Shown piece after piece: positions 11,470 through 64,000 of a stretch of 64,000 nucleotides of DNA. Position 1 is the first letter of the stretch, and every line of letters begins with the position of its first letter. The notes under the pieces are model-generated. The model searched no databases, had not been told where the DNA came from, and saw only the letters and a program-made list of their open reading frames with translations. The stretch lies in assembly GCA_050084515.1 (NCBI GenBank), contig CM114271.1, forward strand, positions 22,630,001 to 22,694,000, written 5' to 3'. The DNA comes from Blasia pusilla. Taxonomy: Eukaryota. A program made the translations under genes and the position numbers.

Positions 11470-11613
11470 CGTTGTGTGTTGTGTGATTCTGCCCGTGGTG
11501 CAACCATTATGCTAGTTTGTGATGGATGTTCGAGAGCATGCCATATGGCATGCTTGATGCCACCTCCCATTACAATTCCTCGAGGCGGATGGATGTGCCC
11601 CAGATGTACATAA
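11470..11613 (+). pseudogene. PHD finger (C4HC3) at the C-terminus of the copy A polyprotein
   Basis: CVLC...MLVCDGCSRACHMACLMPP...WMCPRC*, with all eight ligands and the conserved Trp. Confidence 0.88.
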
Positions 11614-11940: not shown

Positions 11941-12371
11941 TGTCACGTATTTTAGGATAGATCGGTAAGATCTAGTAGAGCTCCTTCAAGGATAGTGGAG
12001 GACAGTCTTGAGAGGTCACAAGGTGACTTCTTGAGACTATAGGTATTTTGAGAGAGCAGGTTTTCCCTTCATTTCGGCTCATTTGGAGCTATATAGATAA
12101 ACTTACTATTTTGTGTCAGTTACTATTTTCAATATCATTGAATTTCTACTTTAGGAAGTAATCCTTGACCTCCTACATTAGATCAAGAGCCAAGGAGGTG
12201 ACTTGCGAGCATAGGTTACCGTGGAGAGAGCTTGGGAGAAGGAAGGGGCTTTGAAACTCATTCTCTCGTTGTTGAACCTCTTGGCATGAGGCGGCCGATC
12301 CGTAGATATGGTCCTCCTTGCCTTGTTTCTGTAACCCAAACCTCTCATTATAAGAATGAGTTTGGTTTGAC

Positions 12372-12459
<88 letters not shown>

Positions 12460-12505
12460 TGTGCACCATGGAGAGGCATTGTGTTAAGAGAGACACTTGA
12501 TTTAT
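11941..12505 (+). repeat. LTR-like repeat homologous to 54131-54684, containing (GA)n
   Basis: Starts TGTCAC. TAGGATAGATCGGTAAGATCTAGTAGAGC and CCTCCTACATTAGATCAAGAGCCAAGGAGG are shared with 54147-54400. Confidence 0.7.
12374..12457 (+). repeat. (GA)n microsatellite, about 42 units
   Basis: Directly visible. Confidence 0.97.
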
Positions 12506-12649
12506 TGGAGATATTTTGGTACGTGATCGTCTTGATATTTGGATTTAGCATGGGATCTTATGTATGTTCGGTAACATCGATATATGTTGTGTAGCAATGT
12601 GTATGCACACGACATCCTTTATGAGGTGTCTACATAGAGAAGAATGGAA

Positions 12650-42700: not shown

Positions 42701-45589
42701 GAAGTTTTCAAGTAAATATGAGAGAGCTGCAGTTGAAGTTTTCAAGTAAAACAGGTTTGCTTATCACTAGCTAGGGTGGAAAATGCAGAGTTAACATTTC
42801 AGAAAAAAGATGCATACTAGCATCAATTGAGATAAGTGTGGGAATAAAATAGAAGTCGACATACCAAACTGATCATGTCTTTTAAAGGCTGAATTTGAGC
42901 CTGATCAATAGACATATGCAGTTGAAGTTTACAGCTAAAACATGTCGTCATAGCATCAACTGTACTGAAAAATGAAAAGCTAACATAACATGAGGAAGGT
43001 GCATATTAGCATCAGCTGATATACATCTGGGAATCACATGTCAAGAATATATTTCATTATTGCTTCTTGTTGTTCCATTGACTGATCTTGTGTAATATAA
43101 GGATGCATAGTTGAAACAAGAGATTTGAACTATGCTTTTGCTACATGTAATTTTTGGTGTGCTTCATCCAAAGCAAGAGTAGCTGCAAAAATTTCTGCCC
43201 GGGTTGAATGTAATGTTTCATTGAGAGCAGCAAGCTTGGAACAAGAAGTAGCGAATTTGTGTTTTGCTACAGCAAGGGCAAAGGAAATCCTTGTGTAAAC
43301 GTGAAGAGGCATTGAACCAGATGGTGTGACAGCAACTATTGTATATGCATATTGATAAACCTGAAGATTTGAACCAAGATTCATGCCATGAATTGTTGTT
43401 CGAACGTGAGCTGGGTTGTTGTTGCCTCTTCTAGGAGTTGCTCTCACTCTCATCTAATGCATCTGTACCATAACATGGAGAAAATGACACGAGAATGAAA
43501 CTACAAAAAAACAAGTTTGAAATAGGCAAATGAACATTGTAGATGCTAAAAATGAAGCAAATTGGGGATCTGAAAAATAGGACAAGTACACGATAGTGCA
43601 GGACATAGTACTCAAAAGAGTCCAAGACAACTTGGTGAGATGGACTTAAAAGTAACAATTCAAGAATTATATTGAGATCAAAAATTAGATTAGTTCAAGT
43701 GAATGATAAGTAAATGGATAGAAAGGAGAGGTCGATTGCAGCATATAAAAAAATCAGAGTTGAGCTTAATGCAAATGCATTTAAATACTGATAAAAGAGG
43801 AACCATATCAAGAACATAAGTAAATGAACTTGAAGGGAATGATAAGTAAGCTCAGAAAAGCATCAGATTGAGTGTAGTAAAAAAAAAACAAAATGAGAGC
43901 TGAGCTAACTAAATATAAAGTACTGAGGTTCATCTTAGCCCAGAGTGTTATTTGATTGTGAAACTTTGAGATATGCTCAACAGTAGGCGGATAACACTTG
44001 GCATGTGACAAAAATACAGTGTAGATTTAGGATAGTAATGGAAAGTAATGGATACTTTCCAGTTTTTCTAGATGAAGTAATACAAAGCTGTTCCTCCCTA
44101 ATACATAAGTAAAAAAAAAAAGATCTAGAAATGGACAAAAGGTTATCATTAAATTTATCTTGAGTTCTTCTGATGCATAATTATCAAAACTAAAGAGTTG
44201 TGAAATAAAAGGCAACACGTGCAAAATACTTGTGCTATAAGAAAACAAAATCTAACTGCAGTACGAAGTGACAATGCTCCTTAGTAGGTTGTGGGTAACA
44301 ACATGTGTTCATGCTCAAATTGTACTATTGTGTTTATGAACCTTCGTGGTGTAATTAGACCATCTTGTACAGAGATACAATCCAGATATTAGAACAGGGT
44401 ACTGAAAGGAATGATCAAAAGTGAGTAGTGCAGGTTTCAGAAGAAGTTTATGGTAGGTAGGAGTTGGACTTCCTAAGATGTGCATTTGCGCTTGCTGGGG
44501 GAATGGAGAGTAGAATTGTTCTCATAGCCAGAGTTGGAGCCAGAGGCAAAATCAGCTGGATTACCCTACTGAAATTCATCCTTAGGTTCAGTGGGTGAAT
44601 GTGATCCGGGGATATGAGATAAGATGATGACATCATCAAACTTAGGTAATGCAAGGAAATGATTGGGGTTGTCAACATCAATAGGTAATGGCTCAAACTC
44701 GGGTAACTTTCCATTATCTTGAGCTACTTTCATTCTTTCACTTAATTGGCTGGCCTTTGTTGAAGAGAGCTCAAGCAGCATCTTCATAGGTAAATGCATT
44801 TGGTGTCTAAGTGTTCTCAACTCGTCTAGCTTGATTCCTCATGAGATTATGTTGAAGAGTCTTCCTACGTCCTTTCTCGTGAGAGTAGTCTCCTTAAAGT
44901 CCACATTCTTGAACTTCAAGGCTTCTTTCTAAATGCCTGGCCAAAGAAATTCAGAAGTAAAGCATTAGTGTGTTGAGTAGATGTGTAGGTATGCATGTAA
45001 TGGATGTGAGAAAAAATAAAAAGAATTAATGAGCTGATGAGAAGTACCTGACGTAGGCGCATTCTTATTGATATGAAAAAATTTGGAATCCCAGATGTGC
45101 CCTGGTTGATGAGTGACTGAATTTTCCTTCCAGTAACTCCATGTTCCTAGAAGGCAAGAACCAAGCCTAGGTTATCCATGTACTTTATTTGATTCTCAGT
45201 CGGGAAGATGAATTGTGGCTTGTATTCCTCAGGTTCAGACTTGATATCACTGAAGATCATGATTGCAAAATCAAGGTAGCTTGAAGGCATATGGCAACAA
45301 GAGGTTAGAAGAGAATTTAGATAAACTAGGAAGGCAAGGTGCACAGGGGTTAGGAGAGTACCTCTGGTGTGTCCCTCTCCTGTGGGTGATGGTTATTTTC
45401 AGACTGCACAACTGGTAGTGGATTTGGATTAGGTTCATGTTCAAATAGTGGGAGTTGCGCTTGTTGTAGGACTTGAGATGAAACTCATCCAACACGTCCC
45501 CTTCTTGAGCTGGCTGGGGATAACATCTTGCAAAAGCTGCAATTAGAACTCAACATGTTATGTGTGTTAATCCAGAACAGAGAAATCAG

Positions 45590-46794
45590 AAGGCTGAAGC
45601 ATACCCAGTATTCGGAGCTTGCTTCTGGTTTTAACACGTGACAACATAACATATGCTAGGTCGTAGGCAAATATAGACTGAATAACTAATAAACATGGCC
45701 AACTATTGTGGATCCGTGATTTTTGTGAGCTATCACGGCATAACCTAAAACTAGAGGAAAGGTCCTTTTAGTGTACTTCTGAGTTGAATGGTACCTCAGT
45801 GTAGAAAAGTTGGTCCTAGTAATTGCAACAGATGCTGTTTGAATCAAGCTTGACAATAATTTTAACTAGGACATTTCCCTCATAAAAAGATCAGATATTG
45901 AACCAATAGAGCCATTTGCTGCTTGCATCTTTAAGTTTACATTCGAAGTCAGCATAACTTTGCAATGCTTAGCAATAAAATTTAGTTGATGGAAAGAAGA
46001 ATCATTGATCCAAGACGTGAATTGAGTAGATGAAGGTGCATCAGTAAGTACATCAACCTTAACAATGGAAGCATCATCAAAGATCCTCCTTAATGCAAGC
46101 AAGTTAAAAATTGATACATCTTTGCACTGCCTACAAATGATTGTTGTATCTGATGATACATAATCAGTTACCTCATTCTCAGAGAGAAAGCAAGGTCCAA
46201 GGCAGTCAAGTATCTGAGATTCAGTTGGTATGGTTGTCTTGATTGATTTCAGAAAAGTACTAAAAGGAGGATCTTTAGAGTGTCGCATAGATGTACTAAT
46301 TTGGTACAATTTAGTAGATGTGAACAAGGGTGAGGAGATGATATAGGAGTTTCTGCAATACGAAAAAGTCCTATGATTGCACATAGGTGGTAATTAACAA
46401 GGATCCCCAACTAGTACTAATAGCTTCCTAGCAAAAGGTTTGGTAACAACACCGTGTGAGACTTCATGCATACGCATAGCTATAACTTGGAGGAGTTTGC
46501 ACGTTAGCATTGAGAACTCGTCAATGAAAAAAACCTCAGCAAATCTAAGTCTAATGTAAGAATATGAAGTAGCATGCATTGCTGGTAGATCACCACGAAT
46601 GAGAATAGCAAATGCTGAATAAACTGTAGTTGCTTGTGAATGGAGACAAATAGTTGCAATACATGTTGTTGCACTTAGTAGCGGAACCAAGACTTGGAAG
46701 ACTTGTACTTGTACATGAATTGTATAAAGAAGGATTTTCCACAACTAGGAGGTCCTGAGAGGAAAGTATGGCTTGCAGCGGGGATAGTTGAGGG
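45590..46794 (-). pseudogene. PIF1-like SF1B helicase pseudogene (cellular-type motifs, no adjacent Rep seen)
   Basis: Walker A HTFLSGPPSCGKS (about 46735-46775), FFIDEFSML, LLVLVGDP, VMLTSNVNLKMQAANGSIG and KRTFPLVLGYAVIAHK. Confidence 0.82.
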
Positions 46795-47344
46795 AGTGGG
46801 ACCTACATTTTCCATGGTTGGCTATGGGTTATCGCTTTAGTCGGCAAGCATCCTTGGCGTCATTTTCACCGTACTTTTTGCTCTTTGGGAGAGAACCAGA
46901 TTTACCTGCAGCGATTTGATGTGACATTGCAAAGGTGTTAGATCTTGATGATCCAGATGTGTGGCTACAAGCATGTTCTCAGAGGGCGAAGGTTTTTCGT
47001 AGAGTTATGCCTATGGCCTTTGAGAACTTAGCTATTGCTCAACATAGAGATACATTGAGGTACGCGACCATTTGGGGAGGAGGTTTTTGTCTAGGGATTA
47101 GGAGGTTTCATCCTGGAGATTATATGTATTTACAACAGGTGGCACCTACGACGCTAGATGTCACTATAGGGCGCACGATCCTACGTGTGTGCAAGGTATT
47201 ATCCACCGGAGTCCTCATGTTGGAGGGATGGGATGGTATGGTTTGGAAGGATCATGTGCTCAATTGTGCACCATATCATCTTCCGAACGTAGACGCGATA
47301 GTGGATTCGAGCTTGGCAGTGGTACCTGTAGGCTTGAGGTGTAT
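46795..47344 (+). mobile_element. Isolated integrase C-terminal fragment of the MTase-Gypsy family
   Basis: EWDLHFPWLAMGYRFSRQASL...MPMAFENLAIAQHRDTLRY...NCAPYHLP...LRCML, cut at the start of the PHD. Flanked by GTTGAGGG at 46787-46794 and 47345-47352. Confidence 0.85.
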
Positions 47345-47584
47345 GTTGAGGGTGGATATACTTGCATGAATGTGTCCACAGAGGAATTGTCAAATGTATG
47401 AGTGATATTCATGACCTCATTAAGTCCCATGCACTTTGAAATTTCAGGATCCAGCTTCATGAAGTTGAGATTCTTGTTAAAGCTACAAGTATACTACAAG
47501 TTGGGCTATCAATTGATTTAACCACCATGTTTTCTGTGCACCTACTATTGAACATGCACCAGAATTATTTCAAGATGCACAAGA

Positions 47585-48250
47585 CCCATCCGCCTCAGGA
47601 TGATCTCTGGACGTGGTGCGGTGATCTATCAGCGCCTGATCACACAAGGCCTAAAACTCTCCCTTGAACTCGGTACCGTGGTCAGTCAACACCTCCTCCG
47701 GTGCACCAAAGTGACTAAGCACACAATCTAGAAATGCATAAGCTGTTTCCTGGCTTGCCTTGTCCTGTAGTGCCACCAACTCTATCCACTTGGAGAAATG
47801 CTCCACCATGACCAACATGTGTCTATGATGACGCCCCGTCAATGGCAAAGGTCCCGCAAAGTCGAAAATCCATCGATAACCTAAACCCATAATCGGAAAA
47901 GGATGTAACTGCGGAGTGGGAGCATTGAAGGATGCTCGCACTTTGTCACATACCATACATCTGGCCACAAACTGTTGTATCCTAGTATGCATGCCGCGCC
48001 ACTATTACTGAATCTGGAGTAAGCTGTAAGTACGCTTCACTCCAAAATGTCCCAACTCCTCATGGGCATGTTGCACTACACGTGCTTGCTGGGAAGGATA
48101 AGGTACCACTCGTATCCTACCATCTCCCCATACCCGTAAAATGTGAGTCCCCTCCCACTTGAACCTCCTGGCTCTCTATAGGATCCGATCCCGCTCCCTA
48201 GCACTCACTGTGCTCGCTATGATGCCAGTGCGCAAGAACTCCACAACCTA
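47585..48250 (-). pseudogene. Integrase of copy B (zinc finger and core, 3'-truncated)
   Basis: HAHEELGHFG...CMVC, DFAGPLP, VLTDHGTEFKGEF and TTSRDHPEADG. Confidence 0.9.
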
Positions 48251-48535
48251 TACATTGTCATGGATATCACGACCACCTGTCGCCTCCTCACTGACCTCCG
48301 GATCCAAAGACTCATCATCCAACCCCACCACTGAAGTCATCACCTGTGGCTGACCTGCCATAGTCAACCAACAAAGATAGGCAGATGCATGCCAACCGAG
48401 CACCATCTACTCATCACTCTCTCCGTGCCATCGAGCTCCTGTGTCGTCTCTCTGACTCGGACATGGGTTACGACTCAACCCATCCGCATCCTGGTTCAGC
48501 CGACTTGGCCTATGAACCACCTCAAACTCATACTC

Positions 48536-49903
48536 CTATAGTAATAGAGCCCACATGGCAAGCTTTCCCGTAAGCTTGTTGGACTCCATCAACCACCTCA
48601 ACGGCTGATGATCAGTGATAAGTGTGAAAGGGTTTCCAAATAAATAGCACTTGAAATGTGCCATGGCCCACACTGTAGCCAAGCACTCTCCCTCATAGGA
48701 GCTGTACTTTGCCTCTGCAATGTTGTTCAATCGGCTCGCGTAAGCCACAACAAACTTCCTCTCCTTGTAATCCCTTTGAGTAAGCACTGCTCCTAGACCC
48801 AACATGCTCCAATCCGTATGTAACTGGAATGGGCAACCCCTAATCAGTCTCTGTAAAATGGGTGAGGACGTCAATCTATCCTTGAGATCCTGAAATGCTT
48901 GCTCATGATCATCTCCCCACAACCAAACCAGATCAAGTCTCGTCAACAAGGTCAAAGACTTTGCAATCGCACTAAAACCCTTGACATACCGTCGATAGAA
49001 GTTTGCAAGGCCAAGAAATGCTTGGACTCGACTCACATATGTAGGGCGTGGAATCTGCGCAATAGCCTCTACCTTCGTCTGCTGAACGCCTAACCCACTC
49101 GGGTATATGGTGTGTCCCAAATACTCAATCTGCTCCTGAAAGAATTTGCACTTTCTTGGATGTAACTTCAGTCCATGTAACTGCAATGGCCGAAACACCA
49201 CCTCCAGGTGTCGCTCATGCTCCTCAACCGTGGAACTGAAGATAAGAATATCATCTATGTAACATTGTGCAAACTCCAAGCTAGCCAGAATCCTATCCAT
49301 CACTCTCTGAAACTCTGCAGGCGCGTTCTTCAACCCAAATGGTAAGAACCGCCACAGATACAAGCAATCTCTCCGGAACCAATCTATCCCCCAGAATGTT
49401 GTCTTCTCCCTATCCTCCAGCCTGATAGGAAGCTGATGATAGCCAACACGGAGATATAAAGTACTTAAGATCTTTGCATGCCCTACCGCATCAAAGATCT
49501 CCTTAGGAGTAGGCATGGCGTACCGATTTGACTTCGTCTGTCGGTTGATAGGATGGTAATCTCCACATATCCGCCTATCCGTCCAATTTCCATACATATC
49601 CTTCTTCGCCGGCATGACTGTGGCAGATGCATACTCCCCATGTGATAACTCCACAAGTCCTGCCTCCAACAAGTCTTGCCTCCTGCTCTAAATCAAGGCT
49701 CGCTCCATATCACAATACCTGTAGGGTCGACAAAAGATCGGCGTATCACTAGCCAACTCAATCTGTATCCCGGGACCCTTCAGCGTACCCAAGTCTCTCA
49801 TACTGAACGCAAAATGACTGACATGCCCTCTCAGAAACCTATGAACTCGTCGTCGCTCTCCTCCTATCAACTTGAGACCTATCACAGGCTCCCAAGTCTC
49901 CAT
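48536..49903 (-). pseudogene. Reverse transcriptase and RNase H of copy B (378-aa open segment)
   Basis: RICGDYHPIN, LPFGLKNAPAEFQR and YIDD. RNase H LHTDWS...EGECLA...TDHQPL. Confidence 0.95.
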
Positions 49904-50209
49904 TGTGACCTCACTCTAAGAGGACGCAACCTCCGACTTGTGTTGCTATGTAGCAATCCTAGCTACCTCCGCAACAACCACTCCACTCTGACCTCCTACA
50001 CCATGCTCCACATCCAAAAAATGAACATGTGCTACTCTGGCCGCCTTCGCACTCTCTGCTCGAACGACGTCCCAAGAAGTCCATGGGTGCCTATCTCTCT
50101 TCGTCTCGCCCCCAGCCAATTCTTGTACAGACCTTGTAGGCAATGGTCCAACTTGTGGACATGAGGGCATGTATGACACTCGCATCCGTCTCTGCTCAAC
50201 CATACCTAG

Positions 50210-51170
50210 GCTGACTATCCATGTGAGACAGTTGAGGTCCATTGCTTGCCCCAACACCTATCTCCGGAATGCCTTAGTCATCCTTGGCACCGCCGTAGTA
50301 CCGATAGCGAACCCCATGGCGCGATCGCGCTCATCTGTTGTAGGCTCCTCCAATGCTCTGGTCACCTCATCCCAAATCATGCCTGGCCTTCGTTGACGAA
50401 AGGCATGGGATGCTGGGAAGCTCACCAATGTAGGTAAGGCTGCCCTCAACTCCCCCACCCTATTGGCGATGGCCAATGGTGGTCTATCATCCCGTGTCAC
50501 CACCAGAGATCAACGACTTGAGCCCAAAATAGCATCCACTTTGAGATGTGGTGCTCTCTGGACTCCATCGTATGCTCGACTCAGTACCTCTGATGGTATC
50601 AAGTTTGTCCATCACAATCGTGGACGATGGGCAGGTGATCCAACTCTCGCTGCATCTAACAACACAGCAGGTCCCAACCAAGACCTCACCTGATGCACAC
50701 TCGTCATCACACATGCACGAGTGTCTCCCAACAACGACACGTTCTCCAAAATGTACGTTGGAGATCATGTCGGACTCTCTTGCTAGTGTCGTACTACTCG
50801 CAGCATCTCCCAAAATATCCCCGACCTCGGATCCTGCAATCCAAATCCTCGTCCAGCTGATGAATGACCTTGACATGGCCATCCAGCCATCACCAAATGA
50901 ATGGTGCCAACTCTATCCAGATCCTGCGCCCCCACCAAAGAGATGTCGGCGGGTAGTGTATGTTGATATCCCCATACTGCAGATGCCGGCAACAACTGAG
51001 GATACCTTTGGACCAATCTCGCCACGTGACGTAATGATACTCGTTGCACGGTCTCATCTCTCTCCCCATAAACGTACTCATGCATCTGCATGCCCGCCTG
51101 AAATACTGCAGCCAATCTGGTGCTAATCCCTCCGAAGAGATCTAACACCCTAATACCCTCCTTTGGGCAC
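50210..51170 (-). pseudogene. C5 cytosine DNA methyltransferase domain (Dnmt3-like) of copy B
   Basis: Motif I IRVLDLFGG, II YGERD, IV AGWPCQGHS (catalytic Cys), VI YILENV, VIII AHRPRL*WTN, IX DERDRAMGF, X RR*VLGQAM. In canonical order and one frame, with internal stops. Confidence 0.93.
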
Positions 51171-51274
51171 TGCCACACAACAAGTGTGGTATCCTGTGGG
51201 TTCAACGTCTCCACTCCAAGAGCCCAATTGCCACATGACTCTCGCTGCTCCCGGATAAAGGCATGACTCCACGC

Positions 51275-52036
51275 CTATCTCACGAGGTTGTCGGTACTCC
51301 TTTGTAGCTCTGGAGTTATACCCCACAATGGTGAAGAGGTCTCGCCAATATGGGAAGAGACACCCGCCATGGCTAGTCTCTTCGTGGGACTATCCGCTAT
51401 TGGGACATCCTCCGCAAGTGCATTCCCCTCCAATAACTCTCTTGGCCAGCTAACACTACTTGTGAAAGTTGCCAACATGGTCACAGACTCGCCTTGTGAT
51501 CGACCACCTCGTCCCGCAAACTGCACGGGTAACTGACTCATCCGCCCGTCACCTGACCGCCATCCTGGCCGATAAGCAACGGTCTCCTCCCAGAAGTCAA
51601 GGATGAATCCTAGGGGATATAACACTCTACTCCCCACCAACACATCATACGACTCAGCCGGTGTCGTAATCGCACGTGTGCGCACCATAGCACTATCCGT
51701 CGCATCCTCTAGCTGGACTCTTACAACTATCTCCTGTTGAGTCATATATTGCGTGGGTGACACGCCCCCAATCGAGGTTTGTATCTGGAAGGGACAAGGC
51801 TCAATGTCGGCCTTCCGTAACCCCAACGCTAAACACGTCGCCTTCCCTAACATCAAGGGATGCGCTCCTGAATCAAGTAGGACACGTTGCCGGTGGTATA
51901 TCGTCCCCGTGGGACTAACCAAGAAAAATACTCTAGCTCGGTTATCCAGTAACACTACTCCAGATGTCACCATTGCTCTCGCTCTATGGCCGGTCGAGCT
52001 GGCATATCTACCAACTTTGCCGCCGCCGTATGCCAT
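51275..52036 (-). pseudogene. Retroviral-type aspartic protease of copy B
   Basis: RVLLDSGAHPLML...YDVLVGS. In frame with the downstream MTase across one TAG. Confidence 0.88.
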
Positions 52037-52559
52037 GACTATGTGGGAAACGTCCCGAGCACCGACTTTGAGGGCAAGTCCACCACCTCGTCAACTACCC
52101 CTAAACAAGAAGCAGTCACCTCTCCACCCTCACACAATGTTGCCGCCAGCCGGAACACCTCAACTGGTCCAACTCCCAACGTCGCCAACTCTATGGTGGA
52201 AAATAGTGGAGTGTGACTCAATCTGGTGGCCACCTCCAACACTATGCTCGACACTGACTCCACTCGAGTCAGCATAGGAGTTTTCACTCCAACTCCTTGT
52301 GATGTCGACATACCTCCCTGAGCTATAGATACCGTTGGTCGTCGAGGCACCATCGATGGTGTGTGTAGTACCTCCGACAATGTGAATGATTGTGGAACCC
52401 TGACCTGCCGCCCATTGGTCCTCTCTAGTGGGTCAATCTCAACTCCACCTCTCGATGGCTCGATGGCTCTCCCAGCACCCCGAGTCACCACTGCAGCTCC
52501 CTCAACGTGGGTTGCACTACACATAAACCCCATACTACCCCTCACCTGGGTCACGGTAA

Positions 52560-53920
52560 GAGGTAGAAGCTTGAGTCACACTAGATGCTCGCAGATCCGT
52601 GCATCATCGTTATGGCAACAATCCTTTGCTCCAACTGATCGATGCATGAGAGAAGTTCCGGCTCTGGTGCTCCTGCTCCATCTCCTCTGGCTAGTGGTGG
52701 TCCTCTACCACCACATATAGGAAGAACTCCCCGAAGTCCTCCATGACGACCGCCCCCACACCCTCGGCCTACCTTTGGACGTACCTCTTGACGAAGGTCA
52801 AAACACCTATCCCTAGTGTGACCATATATGTGGCAATAGTCACACTGGTGTTGTGGTTGTGCCATCCTCTGTGGCTCCTGAGCAATCGGAGGTACTTGTG
52901 GTCCTCTCCCATGCTGTGGGCAGTCTCTCTGACTATAGGCCCCTCCACACGTCCAACAAGACCACATCGGTCCCTGCTAGGCAACATATGTAGATACGGG
53001 TCATTGCCTCATAGGCTCACGGTACCCGCCCTGCGCTCTGGGCACACCGGCCTGCTCTTGTGGTACTGGTGCTCGCTATGGCACCTGTGGGGTCACTGTC
53101 GCTCGTGGACCCGTCGGCTCTCGAGGAAACCTAGCGGTCACTATCTACTCCTCACTCATGTTGAGCTCAATACGCTCAGACAACTCGAAGACCACCTTCA
53201 ATGTGGGCTTTGTTGTGTGAATCAACATCGCATCTCGGACTCTCCTCCGTAGTTTGCGGTCTAGAACCCCGTACCAATACTAGACTGACTGCGCCTCAGT
53301 CACTCCATACGTAGCAATGATCAGCCTCCTCATGCGTGAATACCTCTCTCAGACTCACCCGATCGTTCTTTGAAAACTCAGAGACTCTTGACTTGTCATT
53401 GCGCGCACGCCTGGTTGCTCTTCCCCAACTGTCAGAAGAACTCCACTGTGGGGCTGAAGCTAGGTGGCCCTCTACCACCAAAGGTCTCTGCCACATCGCC
53501 TGTCTCACTACCCTCCTCTCCATCTAGTCTCCAGGTTGATGGTGTGGGTCTCTCTCCTCTCACAATCCCATCATATGCCTCGCGACCACTAGTGGGCACA
53601 TACCCTCGAGCCCAATACATCATCCAAGCATTGATCTCTACTGAATATAGTGATCAAAACTCCATGTAATCATCCATCGGAGGACCCTACAAATGCTGGA
53701 ACAACCCCTTCCATGCCATGAAAGGGTTGAACCGTGTCGGGGTCCGTATCTCCTTGAAGTTGCACCACGTGTCAAACTCTTGGATAAAATCATCTAAGTC
53801 GATGGTGCCCAATGAACCAAAGAAACGACGCATGCATCGATGGCCCATGTCGTCCATCTCCTGCCAAGTGATGCTGCCTCCGTCTGGGATCTCCTCACCT
53901 ATTTTTAGGGGAAGAGCCAA
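52560..53920 (-). pseudogene. Gag of copy B with two zinc knuckles
   Basis: LDDFIQEFDTWC, CWTCGGAYSQRDC and CDYCHIYGHTRDRC (CX2CX4HX4C). RGG-rich tail. Confidence 0.82.
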
Positions 53921-54130
53921 AAGGCTCTTCCCCTAAAAATAGCCCTGACTTGTTCACCAGGTCACCCGGCTGTGAAAGACCTCAACATGAAAGTTATCAA
54001 AAACAACATTCCCGACACAATGGACCTATCATCAACCTCATCCAACACAATGGGACAAAGTTACACTCAAGATAGTCTGCTGGCTCCTACGTCCTATCCA
54101 CGATAGATCTCGACCTATCGGCTACCCAGA

Positions 54131-54684
54131 TGTGACACACGTCTCATAGGATAGATCGGTGAGATCTAGTAGAGCACCTTTGTGAGTAGCAAAGGACATG
54201 CTCAATAGGTCGAGGATGACCTGCTGAGGCCCCGAGAAACTTGAGAGAGCAGGTTTCCCCTTCGTTTTGGCTCATTTGCAGCCATATTGAGGAACTTACT
54301 ATTTGAGATAAGTACCATTTTGAGTATGTGATCAACTTTCTATTTTTGTCAAGTGACCTTTGACCTCCTACATTAGGTCAAGAGCCAAGGAGGTAAATTG
54401 GGAGCATAGATTACCATGGAGAGAGCTTGGGAGAGGGGAGGGATATACCTCAAGGAGAGAGAGCTTGAGAGCTCATTCTCTCTTTGTTGAACCTCTTGGC
54501 ATGAGGTGGCGGAGCTGTGGTCTTTCTTGCTTTGTGTGTGTAACCCAAGCCCCTCATTAGGAGAGTGGGTTTGGTTTGACATTGAGAGAGACATGTTAGA
54601 GTGCACACATGTGAGAACTATGATGTTGCGAGAGAGATTGGATCTTACTTCACAAAGAGAGAATGAGAGAGTGAGAGAGCTTCA
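54131..54684 (+). repeat. LTR-like repeat followed by PBS-like TGGGGGAGCTCGC; candidate 5' LTR of copy C
   Basis: TGTGAC...TTCA termini with TGG immediately after. Homologous to 11941-12505, which lies just 3' of copy A. Confidence 0.6.
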
Positions 54685-56317
54685 TGGGGGAGCTCGCTAA
54701 TCACTTGTTGTTTTTGCAGGTTGGGAATGGTGTTCCCCATTCTGCGGCTCATGGGTGTGCTCACCGGAGCAAGGGCTGCTTTGATTTTTTTTTGCATTTG
54801 CCAATTTTTCGTGTGGAAGAGTGGCACGCGGAAGCGCTGCCCAATTTCTGATAGGGATTGATTATGGGGGCGGGTTTCACCATACTGGTGCTCTTGGGAG
54901 CACCATGTAGCTTGCTGATTTGTATTTTTATAGGTTTTACAATTTCGTTGGGAGAAAATTTCGTTGTCAAATTTTGTGTAGGAGAAAGAGACATTGGGCT
55001 TTACAACAGTCCCTGTCAATTTTTATTGGAATGTCCAATTCTAAATATTTTTTGATGTTGTCCTAGATCATGAAGCTGTGCAATAAATAGTGCGCAATTT
55101 GGAGTTGTGAGCAAAAATTTATGGTGAGTCTTGCAAAATTGCCATTGCTAGGCAATTTTTAGGGTTAAATTGTTTCAACCCTAAACCAGCCGCCACGCCG
55201 ACAGCGACCGTTCACGATCATCCGTCACCATCAACGCTTAACCATCACCGTCAATGGTCAACCATCACCATCACCGGTCAACCATCACAATCAACGGTCA
55301 ATCGTCATCGTCAACGGTCCACCGTCTGTTGTCCATCCTTTGGCTGCTATTCCCGCTGTTATGGAGTGGAGAGTCTTCCACGACGTTTGTTGATTCTTTG
55401 ACTTGCGTCGCCACCACGTACTTTGTTTTGGCTGCCACCGTCATCACAGTTTTGTCATCAACTTGTGATGGTAGATGACCTCTGGTTATGGTGTTTTAGT
55501 TTTGATTTCATGCTACTATGTTGTGATTGGTAGCCGCTCGACGATGATCGGGTACCGTGCCGTGACGCGCATAGTTGCACCGCACCGTCTCGATCGTGGA
55601 ACCGCTCCTTCACTAAGGAGCACAGCGTGTGAATTGCTGATTGAGGAGGGTACGCCGCCGAGTGCCGCATCCCATTCCCGAGTGTCGTGTTGTTTGTAGT
55701 TGTTCCGTGCCACCAGTACCGCACCGGACCGCTCGACCTGCACCGCACATCGAGGAGGTTGAGCAGCGTCAATACAAGAGGAGTACGACTTGCTGATTGG
55801 AGGAGTTGTCTTCACGGCCGAGTTGGGGTCGAGATTTGCAGTTGCCGAGGAGCGACATCGACATTATTGTCAGGTTACCCATTCTGGTCTCTTACCTTGC
55901 ACGTGTGAGGGATTTCCGAATATTCGGAAGTTATTTGGGATATTGGGTTTCGTGTTGATGCAAGGAGCATCGATGATGTATGGATTTAGGGGACATAGAC
56001 CTGTGTGGGATGTCGAAAGTTGAGGATGGTTTGTCGATGAGATGATAGATCAGTGATTTTCCGCACCACGCTGCTTGTTGCCGCACAACACACGTCTTAG
56101 TGAGAGAGCGTAGATTGAGTGCCGCATATTTAGTTTGAGTGATTGAGGGATCACTCATGAGATTGAGAGTGATCGTGTGAGAGGGGTATGAGGGCCATCA
56201 CGGCATCCTTTCGGGATTTTGAGAGGCGAGGTAGTGGACCTTAGAGTAGCAAGGTTTCAAGGGTCTTCACGTGAGAGACCACCTTGATCTCCTTCTGTGT
56301 CATCTTCAGACGAGGGA

Positions 56318-56398
56318 GAGCATATAGAGGAGTGTGTTAGTGATCCACTGTACACTCAATGTGTACGGTGGATCACTAACACACTCCTCTATATGCTC
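56318..56398. repeat. Near-perfect inverted repeat (38-bp arms, 5-nt loop)
   Basis: GAGCATATAGAGGAGTGTGTTAGTGATCCACTGTACAC-TCAAT-GTGTACGGTGGATCACTAACACACTCCTCTATATGCTC, one mismatch. Confidence 0.95.
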
Positions 56399-58879
56399 CT
56401 ACTAGTTGGGCGTACGAGATGGACCATCAAGGTAGAGGACCGCATAGGTTTTCGGGTGCTGTAGGCACTATAGCTACACGACTTCATTGCGGAGTTTAGG
56501 AGTTGGTGTGACTCACAACGTGCTAGGAACTCTAGAGAGTTCAACCCATTTACATCATGAAACGGTATGTTCCAGCATTTAGAGGGGGCGCCCATGGACG
56601 ATAACCATGAGTTCTCCAATAGATATGCCCAAGAGATAGAGGCATGGCGACTCTACTATGACCCACATTATGTGTCATGGACGGAGCCATTCCGAGATGA
56701 GGAGGAGGAGTCACGAGAGGCTACTTCCTCTTCCTCTAGTGATGTTTTAGGAGGGGTCACTTGCACCGGAGCAGTTGCACCATCTAGTCGGGTTCGTCCC
56801 AGGTTCAACCGTGTGGTTGAATTCTTTGCTGAGTTGAGGGCGAGCTACTAGGGGGTACGGATGGAGAAGTTGGGGAGCATCCATGACTTCCAGAGGCGCC
56901 CAGGTGAGAATTTGCGTGAGGCTTATACTCACTTGCGCCGATTGATCAACGTCACTCAAGGGGTGACAGAGGCTCAGGCTATCTAGTCATGGTACGCGAT
57001 GTTGGACCGGACCCTGCGGACACGGGTGCGGGAGGGGTGCTTCTTATGAACATCTCGCCTACGTTGAGAGAAGTTTTTAGGACTGCCAAGAACATTGAGC
57101 GTAGCATGGTAGAGGAGAGCGTAGCCACTATGGGTTATGGGCGAGAGCAGTCACGATTGTCTGCACCACCTCTGCAGCAACGTGGACCCCGAGATAGGTC
57201 GATTGTGGCACCACGAGCTCAAGGAGGATATCGGGAGGCCGTGCCACAGAGACCTGCGCCTTCATATGCGGCTCGGTAGCAGCCGTTGACTATTACTTGT
57301 TGGTCATGTGGTGGAGCCCATCATGACTGCGATCGCACTCGTCAGGGTCACGGACGTGTGCCTCAGCACACGTTCGTGACCCTGCACCATGAGGTTATTA
57401 GTGTGACTATTGTCAGAGGTATGGTCATACACGCGCCATGTGTTTCATTTTACATCTTGAGTAACGTGCGGACCGAGGGCCAAAGAGGGCACTAGAGCGA
57501 GTAGCCGGTTCGGGTGGGCCTAGAGATCGTGCACTAGGTGGTCCCGTTGGGGGACAAGGAGTTGGAGTTGCCCGATAGGATGGTGGAGATGCCCGTGGAG
57601 GAGGTAGAGTACCACCACCTAGACACGTTGAGGGAGACGCCGGACATGAGGCTGGGATGGCTGCTCAGATACAACTATGGCATTGAGGTTACTCAATGCC
57701 AGATCCTTGGCATTGACATCATATGGAGCAGCTAGAGATATGGAGGATCTTAGTTGGATGTGTGGGGTTGCCCAGATGGAGGCCGCCGCAATTGTGACGC
57801 ATGGAGCAGCCACATAGTTGGATCCACAGTGAGGGGAAGCCAGAAATCAGACTAGGCTTCCTCAGTCTTTCACGTTGTCCGAAGCATTAAGGACCCCATC
57901 GATGGATCATCATCAAAGTTCCTGGAGAGTTGGTGATGTTGTTGGTGAGCAGGCAAGGAGGGCGATGGGAGAAGCAAGTGCGATGACTCCTATTGTTGAT
58001 GCTCATGAGGGGCATGTGTTGAGCACGTTGTTGGGGGCGGCCACCATTGTCATGGCAGGAAGCGGATGCTATGATGGAGGAGATGCCTGCTAGACTCACG
58101 ATAGAGCGTGCCATGGCTTCTCTTGGTGTTGTGTTGCTGGATAACCAAGGAGAGGTCTTCCAGTTGGTGAGTCCCGGAGGTAGAGCTTTTAGTCCGCAGC
58201 GCGTCTTGTTGGATTCAAGAGCGGAACCCCTAATGTTGGGGAAAGAGTCATTCACAGGATTAGGCTTGACGAGAGCCAATATGGAGCGTTGTCCATTTTG
58301 GATATAGACATCCTTGGATGGAGCGAGTACCACATAGTATATCACCTGATAGGAGGTCGTGGTGATGAGTCCGTGGTACGAGCCAAGGCGATAGTGACTT
58401 ATGCAAAGTCCTACGACGTCTTGGTTGGTGGAGGAGTGTTATACACGATGGGGTTTTCCTTAGATAACTGGGAGAAGTCAGCGTCCTACAGACCAGGATG
58501 TCAGTCAAGTAATGGGCGCCTTAGCTCATTACCCGTTCGATTCACAGGTGCAATGATCAAGCGACGGCCAGGAGAGGTGGCAACCTCAATTAGCAGCATT
58601 TAGCAGTGCCATCACTTGGCCTAGTGATTTGATTGAGGGATATGTCCATGCAGAGGATATTCCCGTTCCTAACATTTCTATGGAGAGGAGTGTTATGGTA
58701 GCCGCATCATTCCGTGGAGGAGAGTTGCGGTTGTGGGGCTCGACTGAGGAGCTTTGACGATTGGCAGAGAAGCACGTGTAGACCGCGTGGAGTGAGGCGT
58801 TTGCACCGAAGCGTGATGGGTTTGAGGAACCCGAGGTAGCAGGGAATGCTACGATCACATCCTTGGATACCACAACCCA

Positions 58880-59830
58880 TTGTGTGGCGTATTCCGGAGG
58901 AGGGTATTCACATGTTAGATCTTTGGAGGGATTAGCACCGGGTCAGCTGTTGTTTTGCAAGTAGGAGTGCGAGTGCAGCAGTACCTGTATGTGGAGAGTG
59001 ATGATGTTGCAAGGCGCATCTCACTACGACATGTGGCGCAATTACGCCTATGTTTTCCCAACTTGTTGTCTGCGTCCACGGTACAGGGATACCAAAGTTC
59101 CCTACAGAGGGATATTTCATTGCAGGGGGCGTAGGACTTGGAGCGGGTAGGGACCGTTGATTTGGTCATTGTAGGTTGGCCATGTTAGGGTCAATTGAGT
59201 ATTGGACGAGGCATTGGGTTGGCTGACACTCGATCCAGGTTATTTTGGGAGATGCTGAGGGTCTTGAGATATTTGCAGGAGCATCAATCCCGTTCTCCGG
59301 CTTACATTCTAGAGAATGTACCGAACTTGGGCGATTCGAGGTCACAAGTTGTGACGAGTGCACATCAGGTGCGTGCTTGGATCGGCCCCGCATTAGTTTT
59401 GGATGCGGCGAGTGTGGATTCTCGAGCACATCGCCCGCGTCTATGGTGGACCAACATGGTACCACACGAGGTGTTGCGGAGGTCTTATGCAAGAGTGGAG
59501 CGCCCCTCCCACTTGTTAGTGGATTCCATTTTGGATCCGGGTCGTCGATCATAGGCAATGAGGCACAATGATCGACCGCCGTTGACTGTGGTCAATAGCG
59601 TAGGCCCGCCGCGGGCAGCCTTTCCCACATTTGAGAAGGAGGCCGGTCCTGGCTTGGTTTGGGATGACCAATTTTAGAGGTTGGTAGAGCCCAATGCCGA
59701 CCAGAGAGAGCGAGCGATGGGATTTCCCACATGAGTGACGGTAGTACTGTCAGTGTCAGAGGCATCACGACGCCATGTCTTGGGTCAGGCGATGGACGTG
59801 AACTGCTTGACATGGATCTTCAACTTGGGA
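58880..59830 (+). pseudogene. C5 cytosine DNA methyltransferase domain (Dnmt3-like) of copy C
   Basis: Frameshifted LDL-GG near 58915. VGWPC*G at 59171-59191. YILENVP, RAHRPRLWWTN, DQRERAMGFP and RHVLGQAMDVNCLTW. Confidence 0.92.
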
Positions 59831-60169
59831 GTGGTTTAGTAGTGTCAAATGAGATCGCATCAGATCATAGCAGTTGCATTGGTGAGCCCTATGCCTATTG
59901 AGACAATGGAGGCAATGGCTGGGGGCGAGACCCAAGGAGATCGATACACCAAGGGAGATCGGGAGAGATACCCTTGGACTTCTTGGGATGTTTTGCAGGT
60001 ACGCTAGGAGATGATAGCCACAACATGGAGCGTGGTTCCAGGCATTGCATGTGGAGAAGATCAGAGTTTCCAGTTGGTTGAACAAGAGCGACCAAGTCTT
60101 GGTGTCCAAGACGGGGTTGAACCATAGCAACCATGGATACCCGCGCCGGAGAGTCCTTTCCGTAGTCAC

Positions 60170-61784
60170 GATGGAGACTTGGGAGCCAGATATGGGCCCT
60201 AAGTTGACAGGAGAAGAGCGGCACCGGATACATCAGTTCCTTAGGAGTTATAGGAGTTGCTTTGCGTTTAGCATGGAGGATTTGGGTACTTTGAAGGGAC
60301 CAGGGATCCGCATTGAGTTTTCAACTGATACGCCGATCTTTCGACAACCCTACATGTACAATGATATGGAGAGGGCCCTCATTCAGAGTAGGAGCCAAGA
60401 CTTGGTTGGAACATGACTAGTGGAGATGTCGCATGGTGAATATGCATCTGCCACTGTCATGCCTGCCAAGAAGGATGTGCATGGGAACTGGACGGATGGG
60501 CGGATGTGTGGGGATTACCGGCCTATCAATCGGCAGACAAAGTCCAATATGTATGCCATGCCCACTCCTGAGGGGATCTTTGATGCGATTGGTCACGCAA
60601 AGATCTTTGGTTCATTGGATTTTCCATCCGGATACCATCGGCTACCTATCAGATTGGAGGATAGACAAAAGACGGCATTTTGGGGCATCGATCCTCACGG
60701 GAAGGATTGTTTGTACCAGTGGCGGTTCTTACCATTCGGGTTAAAAAATGCGTTGGCTCAGTTTCAAAGGGTCATGGATAGGATCTTGGCAGGTCTGGAT
60801 TTTTCAAGGTGTTATATTGATGACATCGTAGTCTTTAGTGCCACGGTTGAAGAGCATGAGCGACATCTAGAGGAGGTGTTTTGACGATTGTAGTTACATG
60901 GGTTGAAGCTACATCGAGGCAATTGTAAGTTCTTCTACGACCAGATTGAGTACTTGGGTCATACGATATACCTAGGTGGCCTTGGTGTTCAGCAGATGAA
61001 GGTAGAGGCTATTTCACGCATTCCACGCCCTACAGATGTGAGCCGCGTTCGTGCATTCATGGGATTGGAAAAATTCTATGAGTAGTACGTCAAAGGATTC
61101 AATTTGATTGCAAAGCCATTGACCTTGCTGACCAAGGTGGATCATGAGTGACACTAGGGAGATGAGCAGGAGCGAGCATTTCAGCTGCTCAAGGACCAAT
61201 TGACGTCCGCGCCCATCTTGAGGAGACCGATCAGAGGGCGTCCCTTCTAGTTGCACACAGATTGGAGCATGTTGGGGCTTGGAGCAGTGCTCACCCAACA
61301 TGATGATGAGGGTAGAGAGTTCGTCATGGATTATGCTAGCCGTTTGAACAACGTTGGAGAGACGAAGTACAGCTCGTATGAGGGTGAGTGCTTGGCTGCG
61401 GTGTGGGCTGTCGCACATTTCAGGTGTTACTTATTCGGCAATCCCTTTACCATCATCACTCATCATCAACCACTAAACTGGTTGATGGAGTCCGAGAAGC
61501 TTATAAGGAAGCTTGCAAGATGGGCTCTGTTGCTGCAAGAGTACAATTTTCAGGTGGTACATAGACCTGGGACGCTCAACCAAGATGCAGATGGGTTGAG
61601 TGGTAATTCATGTCCGAGTAAGCGAGATGCGGCTGGAGCTCGATGGCATGGAGAGAGTGATGAGAAGTCAGTGCGAGGATGGCACGCGTCAGCTTATTTG
61701 GGCTTGTTGGCTATGGAGATCAAAAGTGTGGAGACTGTGGTAACGAGGTTTGATGGAGAAGTCCTTGGATCCCGAGGCAAGTGA
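60170..61784 (+). pseudogene. RT and RNase H of copy C
   Basis: ORFs 60045, 60420, 60903 and 61251 share one frame. RMCGDYRPIN, LPFGLKNA, YIDD and HTDWS. Confidence 0.92.
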
Positions 61785-61844
61785 GGAGACGATAGATGGC
61801 CGAGATATTCACGATGATGGAGCAATCTTGGAGTATTTGCGTAC

Positions 61845-64000
61845 TGGCAGAAGATTGAAGATTGAGTAACAGTCAAGCTCATGAGACACCTGAACTACTA
61901 CATTTGGCACTCACACAAAGTAGGGAAGCTTAATCTTGGTTAGTCAGTTAAGCACGATTATCTTAACTAGGGTTAGTTAATCATAATTAGGCTAACTCGA
62001 GACTATGGTTAATGATAGGGTTAGGGTTTCTTGTACATACCCTATATAATTGAAAAGAGGACCAACCTCCACTCATTCTCTCATTGCAAATTTTGTTCTC
62101 CATGGTGGTGTGTGTGTGTGAGAGCCGTTTTCTACCAATTATGCTTGTTTAGATGTTTTCCACATGGTATCAGAGCGGGAGGAGAACATCACTTGAAATA
62201 CTTTGTGTTTGAAGAGAGAAGAGAGGCAAGAGAAGGCAAAATTTCATTTTGGGAGAAGGAAATTTTACTCTGAGTTCAGTGGGTGCAAATTTCAAGTGGA
62301 GCTTTGATGGTGATAAAACTTTGGTGGCGTTTTTAAGGGCTTTTCGGTCGATTCAGCCGTCAGCGTCCACGTCGGCTACTACGATGCCCAAGTTTGGTTC
62401 TAGCCGTCTTGTAGAGCTCATTGAGAGCTTTGCGATGCATCCAAAATGCTCGATTCTGGCACTCTAAGCTCCTGCAGCAGCAATTTCAGTGTAGGAAAGT
62501 ACAATTAGTGAAGAAAAGTTGTGAAGTTTGCTCTCTACAAGCCAATTTCGACTAGTTCTTTCATACATTTGATCAATTTTGGCAAATTTCACGTCGATTT
62601 TTGTGTAGGAGTGGTCTATGCTTCAATTGGAGCAGTAGAAAGCCTGAAATTACATTTTTTGTGAGTGAAATCGTTTATCATGGAATATTCCTCAATAGCA
62701 ATCACATGCGCGAAGCTAGACAAGCAGAATTACAATGTCTGGAAGTTTCGCATGAAACAATTTTTCATGGATCAAGAACTATGGGAGCTTGTTACAGGTG
62801 ATGAGGCCAAGCCACAAGGTGACTCAACAGACTTCAATGTTCGCGCTTGGAACAAACGCACAAGGCAAGTAATCCACTATATTTCAATAACGATCAGTTC
62901 ATCAATGATAGTTCACATCCAAGATATTGATATTCCGAAGGAGACGTGGGATGTTTTGGAAAAGCTATTCCAAATATCTACAAAGGCCATAAAGCTTCAA
63001 TTGAAACAGCAATTGAATGAAGTGAGGAAAGGATCGTAGAGCATCAATGATTATATTTTGAGTATCAAACATATTATTCATCAGTTGAATAACATTGGAG
63101 TGACAGCAGAAGATGATGATCTGATCTTATTCACTCTTCAAGGCCTTCCAAAGGATTACAAGTCCTTTGAGACCTCTATCTCTGTGAGAGAGAAGTATCC
63201 AACCTTTCAAGAGTTAGTTCCTCTGTTGATCAATGCAGAGATGCGTCTAGTAGGTAGCGGTAACTCGTCTAGTCTGCAAGAGAATGCGCTATTTGCAGGT
63301 TATGGATCAAACAGAGGCAAGGGTCGTGGCAAAAACTTCCGTGGTCGTGGTGGATATCAAGCATAAGGAGGAAGAGGCACTCAATATAACGTCACTCAAT
63401 CGACTACGAACCAGTACCAGACACAATCACATGGTGATGATGTGGGAAACCGTTGGGATCGAGGTCAGCAGCAGAGGGTTCTTGGATCTTGCAATTATTA
63501 TGGGATAAAGGGTCACTATGCAAAGTTCTGCTTCAAGAAGAAGGTAGATATGAGAATAGGAGCCTTATAGCAACAACACCAAGAGCAGTACCAAGAACAA
63601 CAACATTCACAAACGGAGCATCTCTTGGTCATGACTCATCATATTGGAGCAATGTTCAAGAAAGACTCGACAACAGATTGGTATATTGACTCCGGTGCAT
63701 CAAATCACATGACCTCATAAGCAAAATGATTTAGTAGTTTGGAGCCGGTGAAAGATCTTGCAATTGTGCTCACATGAGATGACACTCAACATCATATCAC
63801 GCATACCGGTAAAGTTCCAATAACATCATATGGTCTTTGTGCTCTTGGAAATGTTCTCTATGTTCCTACCATTGCAAGAAATCTAATATGTATATGAAAG
63901 ATAGAAGAACAGGGTTATCAAGTGAAGTTTAACGCATATAGTTGTTTCATTGAAATAATGGATGACCAGACTACGATAGCCAAAGGAACTAGATATGGCA
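61845..64000 (+). mobile_element. Ty1/Copia retrotransposon 5' part (LTR to 62164, tRNA-iMet PBS, Gag, protease), running off the window
   Basis: LTR end ...CCACA (62164) then PBS TGGTATCAGAGC (62165-62176). Gag KLDKQNYNVWKFRMK...LWELVTG and LQGLPKDY. Knuckle CNYYGIKGHYAKFC. Protease WYIDSGASNHMT near 63678. Stops present. LTR start is uncertain. Confidence 0.92.

Follow-up and report, generated by a model that had tools for sequence, protein, structure and literature searches.

Retrotransposons that carry a cytosine methyltransferase of their own are described by de Mendoza et al. 2018 (PMC5890265, cited here and below from the accessible part of its text), who report DNA methyltransferase (DNMT)-bearing long interspersed nuclear elements (LINE) and DIRS elements in Symbiodinium and Gypsy-DNMT3 elements in Klebsormidium nitens; later papers of the field, in their accessible passages, speak of 'streptophytes (Gypsy-DNMT3)'. 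Here we analyze a 64,000-nucleotide stretch of Blasia pusilla DNA (the window; assembly GCA_050084515.1, contig CM114271.1, forward-strand positions 22,630,001 to 22,694,000) that holds three old, dead, partly nested copies, A, B and C, of one Ty3/Gypsy-type family about 9 kb long, in which a C5 cytosine methyltransferase domain, DNMT3-like by profile and predicted fold, lies between protease and reverse transcriptase (RT). A sequence-only reading of the window had described such an element and had pointed to the precedents in dinoflagellates and Klebsormidium, correctly when set beside PMC5890265.

The main text of that paper, so far as accessible, makes no mention of Marchantia or liverworts. 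For liverworts and mosses, the full-text literature yielded no account of Gypsy elements that bear a DNMT, with subscription papers, Repbase and supplements lying beyond its reach, and the accessible parts of PMC12344493, PMC11982613, PMC6453930, PMC5784723 and two preprints describe no such elements in bryophytes.

Three copies of one Ty3/Gypsy-type family

Copy B, the main copy, lies on the minus strand and reads from 52090 to 47651 in a single frame of 1480 codons that is broken by 16 stops (12 TAG, 3 TGA and 1 TAA) and 0 frameshifts, just as the sequence-only reading had it; with these stops, and with gag in a frame other than that of the protease, the copy is dead. A Pfam scan of the single-frame translation, with X placed at the stop codons, returns DNA_methylase (PF00145) at E 3.7e-9 and 36.9 bits over residues 382-492, above the gathering cut-off of 22 bits, and the methyltransferase motifs that had been quoted are present in the translation in canonical, non-permuted order: LDLFGG, GWPCQ, ENV, HRPRL*WTN, ERDRAMGF and LGQAMD. 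The Ty3/Gypsy order of protease, RT, RNase H and integrase, with a DDE integrase, is found in copy B as well as in its relatives. The whole copy spans about 46764-53946 and comprises the following features.

47586-53946, minus strand: main block of copy B, with partial gag, protease, methyltransferase, RT, RNase H and integrase core
52581-52976, minus strand: gag zinc-knuckle region, holding a CX2CX4HX4C motif (CDYCHIYGHTRDRC) and a second, decayed knuckle
51500-51980, minus strand: putative aspartic protease region, with LLDSGAHP in the translation
50171-51178, minus strand: DNMT3-like C5 cytosine methyltransferase domain, in which motifs I, IV, VI, VIII, IX and X are present alongside internal stops
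49946-49948, minus strand: conserved in-frame stop TAG, followed by CAA, with RT continuing in the same frame
49106-49537, minus strand: RT with YIDD (RVT_1, E 3.7e-27)
48530-48919, minus strand: RNase H (RT_RNaseH, E 3.4e-30; RT_RNaseH_2, E 3.7e-28)
47663-48094, minus strand: integrase zinc-binding domain and DDE core (Integrase_H2C2, E 7.8e-13; rve, E 1.7e-9)
46764-47584, plus strand: C-terminal segment of the integrase, inverted relative to the remainder of copy B

The gag of copy B has no Pfam match, zf-CCHC being found in the near-intact relative L002, and no Pfam protease family is matched at E 0.01; we infer the protease from its DSG motif and from homology to relatives that match Asp_protease_2 (P0020 and L016). 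The 5' side is truncated at about 53909-53946, loose read ends occur at 53909 and 47586, and at 51976 the copy differs by 2 bases from most genomic reads. The segment at 46764-47584 is assigned to copy B as an inverted piece on two grounds: its plus-strand match to copy A (10927-11481), and 464 whole-genome reads in which 47584/47586 is linked to 46764 on the opposite strand, the non-inverted junction of other copies. Nesting of copy B in a fourth fragment, 'D', is ruled out by these reads, and 54138-54591 suits the 5' repeat of copy C better than part of such a fragment.

At the stop positions of copy B, relatives encode E, L, S, W, R, H, Q, A or Y, and the stops just ahead of the methyltransferase in B and L002 represent decay and no feature of the element, since their positions differ. 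The 100 private changes of copy B, read on the coding strand, include 30 G>A, 18 T>C and just 7 C>T, so that deamination of methylated cytosine as the source of the 12 TAG stops is not borne out. All three copies have a GC skew of about 0.2, the coding strand having more G than C.

A tblastn map places the methyltransferase between protease or protease-like sequence and RT sequence in A, B and C alike, and PF00145 is matched in both B and C, which upholds the proposal of a C5 methyltransferase that lies within a Gypsy-type polyprotein and moved with the element. The presence of the domain in A and C had also been claimed; its position is the same in both, but in copy A the catalytic motifs are destroyed and PF00145 finds no match. 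The loss of the Pfam match is explained by the ruin of motifs IV and VI, which read SGWSYKG and IGDCTD where relatives have AGWPCQG and ILENV; aligned to the methyltransferase family profile with hhalign, the copy A remnant matches over 250 columns (probability 100%, E 7.8e-43). The features of these two copies are listed here.

3140-12605, plus strand: copy A, the most decayed, interrupted by 30 stops over 1213 aligned codons and by several changes of frame
7192-8160, plus strand: methyltransferase remnant of copy A, catalytic motifs lost, matching the family profile
8462-8464, plus strand: conserved stop TAA of copy A, followed by GAA, between methyltransferase and RT
11473-11607, plus strand: PHD finger at the C-terminal end of the copy A integrase (PF00628, E 1.8e-10)
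11801-12605, plus strand: 3' terminal repeats of copy A, with B1 at 11801-11929, A2 at 11944-12381, a (GA)n run and B2 at 12504-12605
54138-54591, plus strand: 'A' terminal repeat, 74% identical to A2 of copy A (11944-12381) and 1.2 kb upstream of copy C
55759-61849, plus strand: internal part of copy C, from gag to RNase H and the start of integrase, broken off at about 61849
58865-59998, plus strand: methyltransferase domain of copy C (PF00145 over 58919-59998, E 2.5e-7, 30.9 bits against the cut-off of 22)

Copy A carries insertions at about 5833-6841, 9336-9656 and 10356-10672, and copy C has 20 stops in 1167 aligned codons together with frame changes. The translation of copy C, like that of copy B, shows motifs I (FxGxG-like), IV (PC), VI (ENV), VIII, IX and X in non-permuted order. 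At the DNA level A and C are about 76% identical, and B is about 66-75% identical to A or C.

The methyltransferase domain and its conservation

Against solved structures, the single sequence of copy B ranks DNMT3A first (E 1.7e-7), followed by DNMT3B and DNMT3C and then M.HhaI. A profile built from 15 family members and run against the PDB sequences gives the same order with more separation: DNMT3A at E 5.8e-24 and 87.8 bits, DNMT3B at E 1.5e-22 and DNMT3C at E 2.8e-22, as compared with tobacco DRM at E 5.8e-14 and 54.8 bits, DRM2 at E 2.9e-11, DNMT2 at E about 3e-10 and 42 bits, and M.HhaI at E about 3e-8 and 36 bits; no DNMT1 or CMT appears at E 1e-3. The match to tobacco DRM falls on the C-terminal half of that chain, as expected for a permuted enzyme. 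Fold prediction points the same way. The AlphaFold2 model of an intact relative (P0035, 63% identical to copy B) has a mean predicted local distance difference test score (pLDDT) of 84.8 and a predicted template modeling score (pTM) of 0.87, and all Foldseek matches listed to rank 50 are DNMT3A, 3B or 3C, at E about 1e-18, with template modeling (TM) scores to the target of 0.74-0.83 for methyltransferase-domain chains and identities of 20-24%. Profile and predicted fold thus support a non-permuted, DNMT3-like domain within the limits of the solved structures, as had been argued from motif style against DRM, MET1 and CMT. A search of the ESM Atlas returned generic DNA-methylase clusters only, and nothing on kinship.

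These same comparisons bear on the possibility that the substrate of the enzyme is not double-stranded DNA but, as for DNMT2, RNA or an RNA-DNA hybrid, for example the primer or the genomic RNA. The profile does detect DNMT2/tRNA methyltransferases (E 3e-10), a position beside the RNA-binding Gag would fit such a substrate, and PMC5890265 raises RNA methylation for a LINE-borne DNMT that failed on DNA in yeast. However, DNMT3A-C score about 88 bits against 42 for DNMT2, the Foldseek matches listed to rank 50 are DNMT3A-C throughout, and the DNMT3-style motifs VIII (AHRxRxxWxN) and IX (ERERxMGF) are retained; an RNA substrate is in our view very unlikely.

The conservation of the domain was assessed from substitution rates, a check that the sequence-only reading had suggested. 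The ratio of nonsynonymous to synonymous substitution (dN/dS; Nei-Gojobori on codons aligned through copy B) is 0.15 for the methyltransferase and 0.09 for RT between B and C, 0.21 and 0.15 between B and A, and 0.35 and 0.30 between A and C, where the ratios for the pairs with B are rough because dS is saturated at 1.9-2.1, a point that tells against pressing them. This pattern shows that the methyltransferase was under purifying selection like the rest of pol during diversification of the family. In a 12-sequence alignment spanning both domain layouts described below, AGWPCQ and the E and N of ENV are invariant, as are motif VIII (H216, R217, R219, W222 and N224), the E, R and G of motif IX and the R and G of motif X.

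Such invariance weighs on a further alternative, that the domain is a non-catalytic adaptor of the DNMT3L kind which recruits or blocks host methyltransferases. Structures of the DNMT3A-DNMT3L complex are among the best fold matches; DNMT3L, though, has lost the catalytic residues, and in the family the catalytic cysteine, ENV and the motif VIII arginines are invariant or nearly so in 12-21 diverse sequences, which makes an adaptor role highly improbable.

Relatives, terminal repeats and a conserved stop

Word-indexed database searches return at least 34 longer relatives and at least 114 of similar length. The named ones belong to Marchantia polymorpha, with many loci at 52-62% identity, to Calypogeia fissa (63%), to Riccia sorocarpa and to four Sphagnum species, and the Marchantia polymorpha gene models in the family include products named Mp_4g09160 and Mp_8g17980. 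These nearest named relatives, liverworts and Sphagnum mosses, fit the land-plant lineage that the sequence-only reading had envisaged. A profile search of 1.84 billion representatives gives 19,931 matches at E <= 1e-3, 541 of them (clusters at 50% identity) at E <= 1e-30; the best 150 of the 19,931 all exceed 265 bits and are all copies of elements, mostly long polyproteins. A Chromochloris zofingiensis gene model (P0213) emerged from a separate, alignment-based search. With this many relatives the domain is more than a chance insertion, as had been claimed.

The family forms part of a far larger group of green-lineage elements, in which two layouts occur. In the first (L002 and L016), Gag with its CCHC knuckle is followed by protease, methyltransferase, one in-frame stop, RT, RNase H and integrase; L016 terminates with a PHD finger, and L002 leaves its contig within integrase. 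Intact relatives of this layout have two open reading frames (ORFs), ORF1 encoding Gag, protease and a methyltransferase of about 360 residues and, past the stop in the same frame, ORF2 encoding RT, RNase H, integrase and PHD finger. In the second (L033 and L034), the order is RT, RNase H, methyltransferase, integrase and PHD finger, and L034 is one open frame of 3329 residues; members of this group also include L036, L038, L039, P0025 and the Chromochloris zofingiensis protein. Where both domains are present (67 sequences), the methyltransferase precedes RT in 13, including B and C, and lies between RNase H and integrase in 54. The integrase PHD finger is found, besides copy A, in L016, L033, L034, P0025 and P0032.

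Both the RT and the methyltransferase trees were 'quick' searches without a mixture model and with midpoint rooting only, from which the near-duplicates L007, L009 and L011 were left out. In the RT tree (74 rows, 64 typed) one branch splits the two layouts, with support of 100 by the Shimodaira-Hasegawa-like approximate likelihood ratio test (SH-aLRT), and in the methyltransferase tree the sequences of the first layout group together (SH-aLRT 85), B and C falling into a 10-row clade (SH-aLRT 99) with L002, Calypogeia, Sphagnum and Marchantia. The Sphagnum, Marchantia and Calypogeia methyltransferases form a tight, supported clade with short branches of 0.04-0.13, which seem close for moss and liverwort hosts that diverged very long ago; the branch lengths fit constraint and horizontal transfer alike.

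The identical flanking long terminal repeats (LTRs) of Ty3/Gypsy elements are absent, in that a search of the window finds no LTR pair for A, B or C. Related loci led us to replace the plain LTR model by a split-repeat layout. Ten of them have a 342-base repeat, 'A', about 4 kb upstream of the methyltransferase, and L025 has the full A-internal-B-A-B arrangement, with A1 at 1676-2017 and, on the 3' side, B (113), A (342) and B (113) at 10238-10805; L005 carries B1-A2 up to its contig end, and L018 and L019 carry A2-B2. In L025 A1 and A2 are 92% identical and B1 and B2 94%, an equal divergence that is expected if both pairs arose at insertion. No single copy in the window has the whole layout: B1 and B2 of copy A are 68% identical over 129 bases (E 2.7e-12), and the 'A' repeat at 54138-54591 probably belongs, from its strand and distance, to copy C as the 5' repeat. 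Read depth peaks over this repeat, at about 3100-3400x; read ends accumulate at 54138, and its upstream continuation is poorly conserved (agreement 0.58-0.75). A 178-base stretch at 766-941 (minus strand) is 77% identical to the 'A' repeat of Sphagnum-type relatives (L025), an unexpectedly conserved non-coding repeat.

Relatives, trees and repeats together bear on an origin by independent capture, raised in the sequence-only reading, in which a bryophyte Gypsy lineage took a host DNMT3 separately from the Klebsormidium elements. The motif IV of the family is PCQ, not the PCN of host DNMT3, and no Klebsormidium name occurs among the matches listed in three word-indexed searches, which, with candidates capped at 8000, is weak evidence; repeated independent captures are also documented in PMC5890265. 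However, the family extends far beyond bryophytes, with its 541 clusters and the Chromochloris protein, the methyltransferase and RT trees concur on the main split, and the DNMT3-type domain and the A-internal-B-A-B layout, unusual for Gypsy, are common to the family and to the description of the Klebsormidium element KnitGypsy-Dnmt3 in PMC5890265. Independent capture thus finds no support here, and we regard it as quite unlikely.

The stop between methyltransferase and RT is itself conserved. It is present in 26 of 27 copies, drawn from the window and from loci L001-L028, copy C being the exception, at a position 18-25 codons ahead of the TWEP motif that opens the RT part, and it is TAG or TAA, followed by CAA CCN (CAA CCA in L002) or by CAG TTA (L016 and L017). 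We presume that this context resembles the UAG-CAR-YYA type of read-through site. Gene models of relatives agree, in that 12 of 17 terminate 60-100 residues past the methyltransferase, several of these, from Marchantia and unnamed sources, having a Met start and 1150-1450 residues. To judge from the sequences, the stop looks like a programmed read-through (or re-initiation) site, and in this branch the methyltransferase would belong to the abundantly translated Gag-protease frame upstream of it and not, as the sequence-only reading had it, to Pol. Four observations run counter to this assignment: the 27 copies scored amount to only about seven distinct lineages; two of the 17 gene models, both from Marchantia (P0006 and P0012), continue into RT, the other three being cut elsewhere; no conserved RNA fold is found 3' of the stop (consensus -1.58 kcal/mol); and Sphagnum-type copies have an ATG two codons past the stop, which makes re-initiation an alternative to read-through.

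The remainder of the window contains other mobile sequences. Long ORFs with helicase-like sequence at 15461-18079 (plus strand) are Helitron-like genes, and the ORFs of 12600-45800 comprise Helitron-like genes only. The decayed remnant of a PIF1-like helicase (PF05970, E 4.8e-8) at 45866-46744 (minus strand), likewise Helitron-like, has single-copy read depth, and a Copia-type gag (Retrotran_gag_2, E 4e-27) lies at 62665-63366 (plus strand), just past the breakpoint of copy C. A repeat of about 240-320 bases occurs three times, at 1429-1669 (minus strand), 9336-9656 (plus) and 10356-10672 (plus), the last two within the copy A integrase region, and is possibly a small non-autonomous element.

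Abundance, possible mechanism and known systems

One whole-genome and three RNA-seq runs with the same species label were mapped as raw reads at 80% likeness on window positions 44000-56000. Taking the unique flank (6 bins, about 2.35x) as one copy-equivalent, whole-genome depth is about 1200x over the methyltransferase (3 bins), about 1150x over gag-protease (7 bins) and about 2120x over RT-integrase (6 bins), or about 510, 490 and 900 copy-equivalents, figures that are approximate only and need to be read with caution, as depth at this likeness mixes subfamilies. The matching depths of the first two regions indicate that gag-protease copies also carry the methyltransferase, so that the domain is not missing from most genomic copies, an absence that the sequence-only reading had named as grounds for refutation; the RT-integrase depth probably includes more distant families. 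Only 593 of 132,025 mapped whole-genome reads are at least 99% alike to copy B, which marks it as a minor, diverged copy. All three RNA-seq runs contain reads in sense orientation (as for a stranded library), with a depth of 39-107x over RT-integrase and of 3-21x over the methyltransferase.

Hosts keep transposons in check mainly by cytosine methylation, and it is therefore paradoxical for an element to bring a de novo methyltransferase of its own. In the mechanism that we propose, ORF1 would be translated far more often than ORF2, which would be reached by occasional read-through of the stop; given this excess of ORF1, the methyltransferase would be made in capsid-like amounts within a Gag-protease-methyltransferase protein, from which the protease would release it. 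The enzyme would be catalytically competent, the S-adenosylmethionine (SAM)-binding motif I, the PCQ cysteine, ENV and the RxR motif being kept across the family, and would methylate the new double-stranded DNA of the element, or the new insertion, such that the copy enters the genome with host-like 5-methylcytosine (5mC). The PHD finger of the integrase would read a histone tail and thereby take part in the choice of landing site. The copies in the window are capable of none of these steps. We consider the explanation as a whole, element identity and mechanism taken together, reasonably probable; the full chain of mechanistic steps is tentative, and we would not yet call it likely.

A further point counts against this mechanism, in that RNA depth per DNA copy is about 4x lower over the methyltransferase than over RT. 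The role of an element-borne DNMT, in the words of PMC5890265, 'remains unclear'.

The target might also be other than the element's own cDNA: acting in trans, the enzyme could methylate host DNA or that of rival elements, silencing competitors or the landing site. The hundreds of copies, the sense transcripts in three RNA-seq runs and Gag-like enzyme levels, if the stop works as proposed, would favor such an action, and effects on the host methylome are considered in the discussion of PMC5890265. On the other side, most copies are likely dead, as are the three in the window, and the present data separate cis from trans in neither direction; we hold action in trans to be unlikely.

DNMT3-carrying Gypsy elements are not limited to one alga, and are abundant and transcribed in a land-plant-type genome. 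The conserved stop, by placing the enzyme with Gag and protease and not with RT and integrase, would be a clue to its dosage and timing. Marchantia, a genetic model for which methylome tools and methyltransferase knock-downs exist, carries apparently intact reading frames of the family, which makes the function of an element DNMT3 experimentally approachable. The broadest version of this idea, to which we give little credence at present, would be that of an old green-lineage clade, from chlorophyte algae to liverworts and mosses, equipped with a full epigenetic kit: a DNMT3 of its own, split repeats of the DIRS type and a DDE integrase that carries a PHD reader. In the bryophyte branch the methyltransferase would have shifted into the Gag-protease frame, and capsid-level enzyme encoded ahead of a leaky stop would mark new copies, and possibly host DNA in trans, with 5mC; given hundreds of transcribed copies per genome, the element DNMT3 would be a real and overlooked source of de novo methylation in bryophytes.

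Several known systems can be set beside the family. Host DNMT3, as represented by structures of human DNMT3A and 3B and mouse DNMT3C, is the best match in both sequence and fold and has the same motif order, but identity to DNMT3A is only 20-24%, motif IV is PCQ, about 90 residues separate motifs VIII and IX, and Pfam finds none of the host accessory domains PWWP or ADD in copy B or 10 related polyproteins. The Marchantia host enzyme MpDNMT3b, named in bioRxiv 10.1101/2021.02.12.428880, corresponds to another gene, Mp5g09290. Chromoviruses have a chromodomain as chromatin reader at the C-terminal end of integrase, where the family has a PHD finger. EpiLTRs (bioRxiv 10.64898/2026.05.21.726589, accessible part) are similar in that a DNMT was added to a Gypsy-like pol, but the preprint places their DNMT as sister to DNMT4, locates it 3' in pol and sets it apart from Gypsy-DNMT3. 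SymbioDIRS-Dnmt3 of Symbiodinium (PMC5890265) shares with the family a DNMT3-type domain, two coexisting domain orders and the A-coding-B-A-B arrangement; it has a tyrosine recombinase, whereas the integrase of the family is of the DDE type and bears both an H2C2 zinc domain and a PHD finger.

The closest counterpart is KnitGypsy-Dnmt3 of Klebsormidium nitens, for which PMC5890265 describes a non-permuted DNMT3-type domain in a polyprotein of Gypsy composition, key catalytic residues retained, a streptophyte host, and repeats 'the same as that of a DIRS retrotransposon' (A-coding-B-A-B), all as in the family; purifying selection is likewise common to both, with Ka/Ks < 0.2 in PMC5890265 and 0.15-0.35 among the window copies. 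The hosts of the relatives found here (Marchantia, Calypogeia, Riccia and Sphagnum) are different, there are about 500 copy-equivalents in one genome as against few copies in K. nitens (PMC5890265), and the position of the domain ahead of a conserved stop, in the Gag-protease frame, is a possible further difference. Three shared features make kinship with the K. nitens elements likely, although the comparison is with a text description and not by a joint tree, which speaks for caution. As far as the literature showed, the family is new for bryophytes, and it is the land-plant counterpart of a known kind, the Gypsy-DNMT3 of Klebsormidium.

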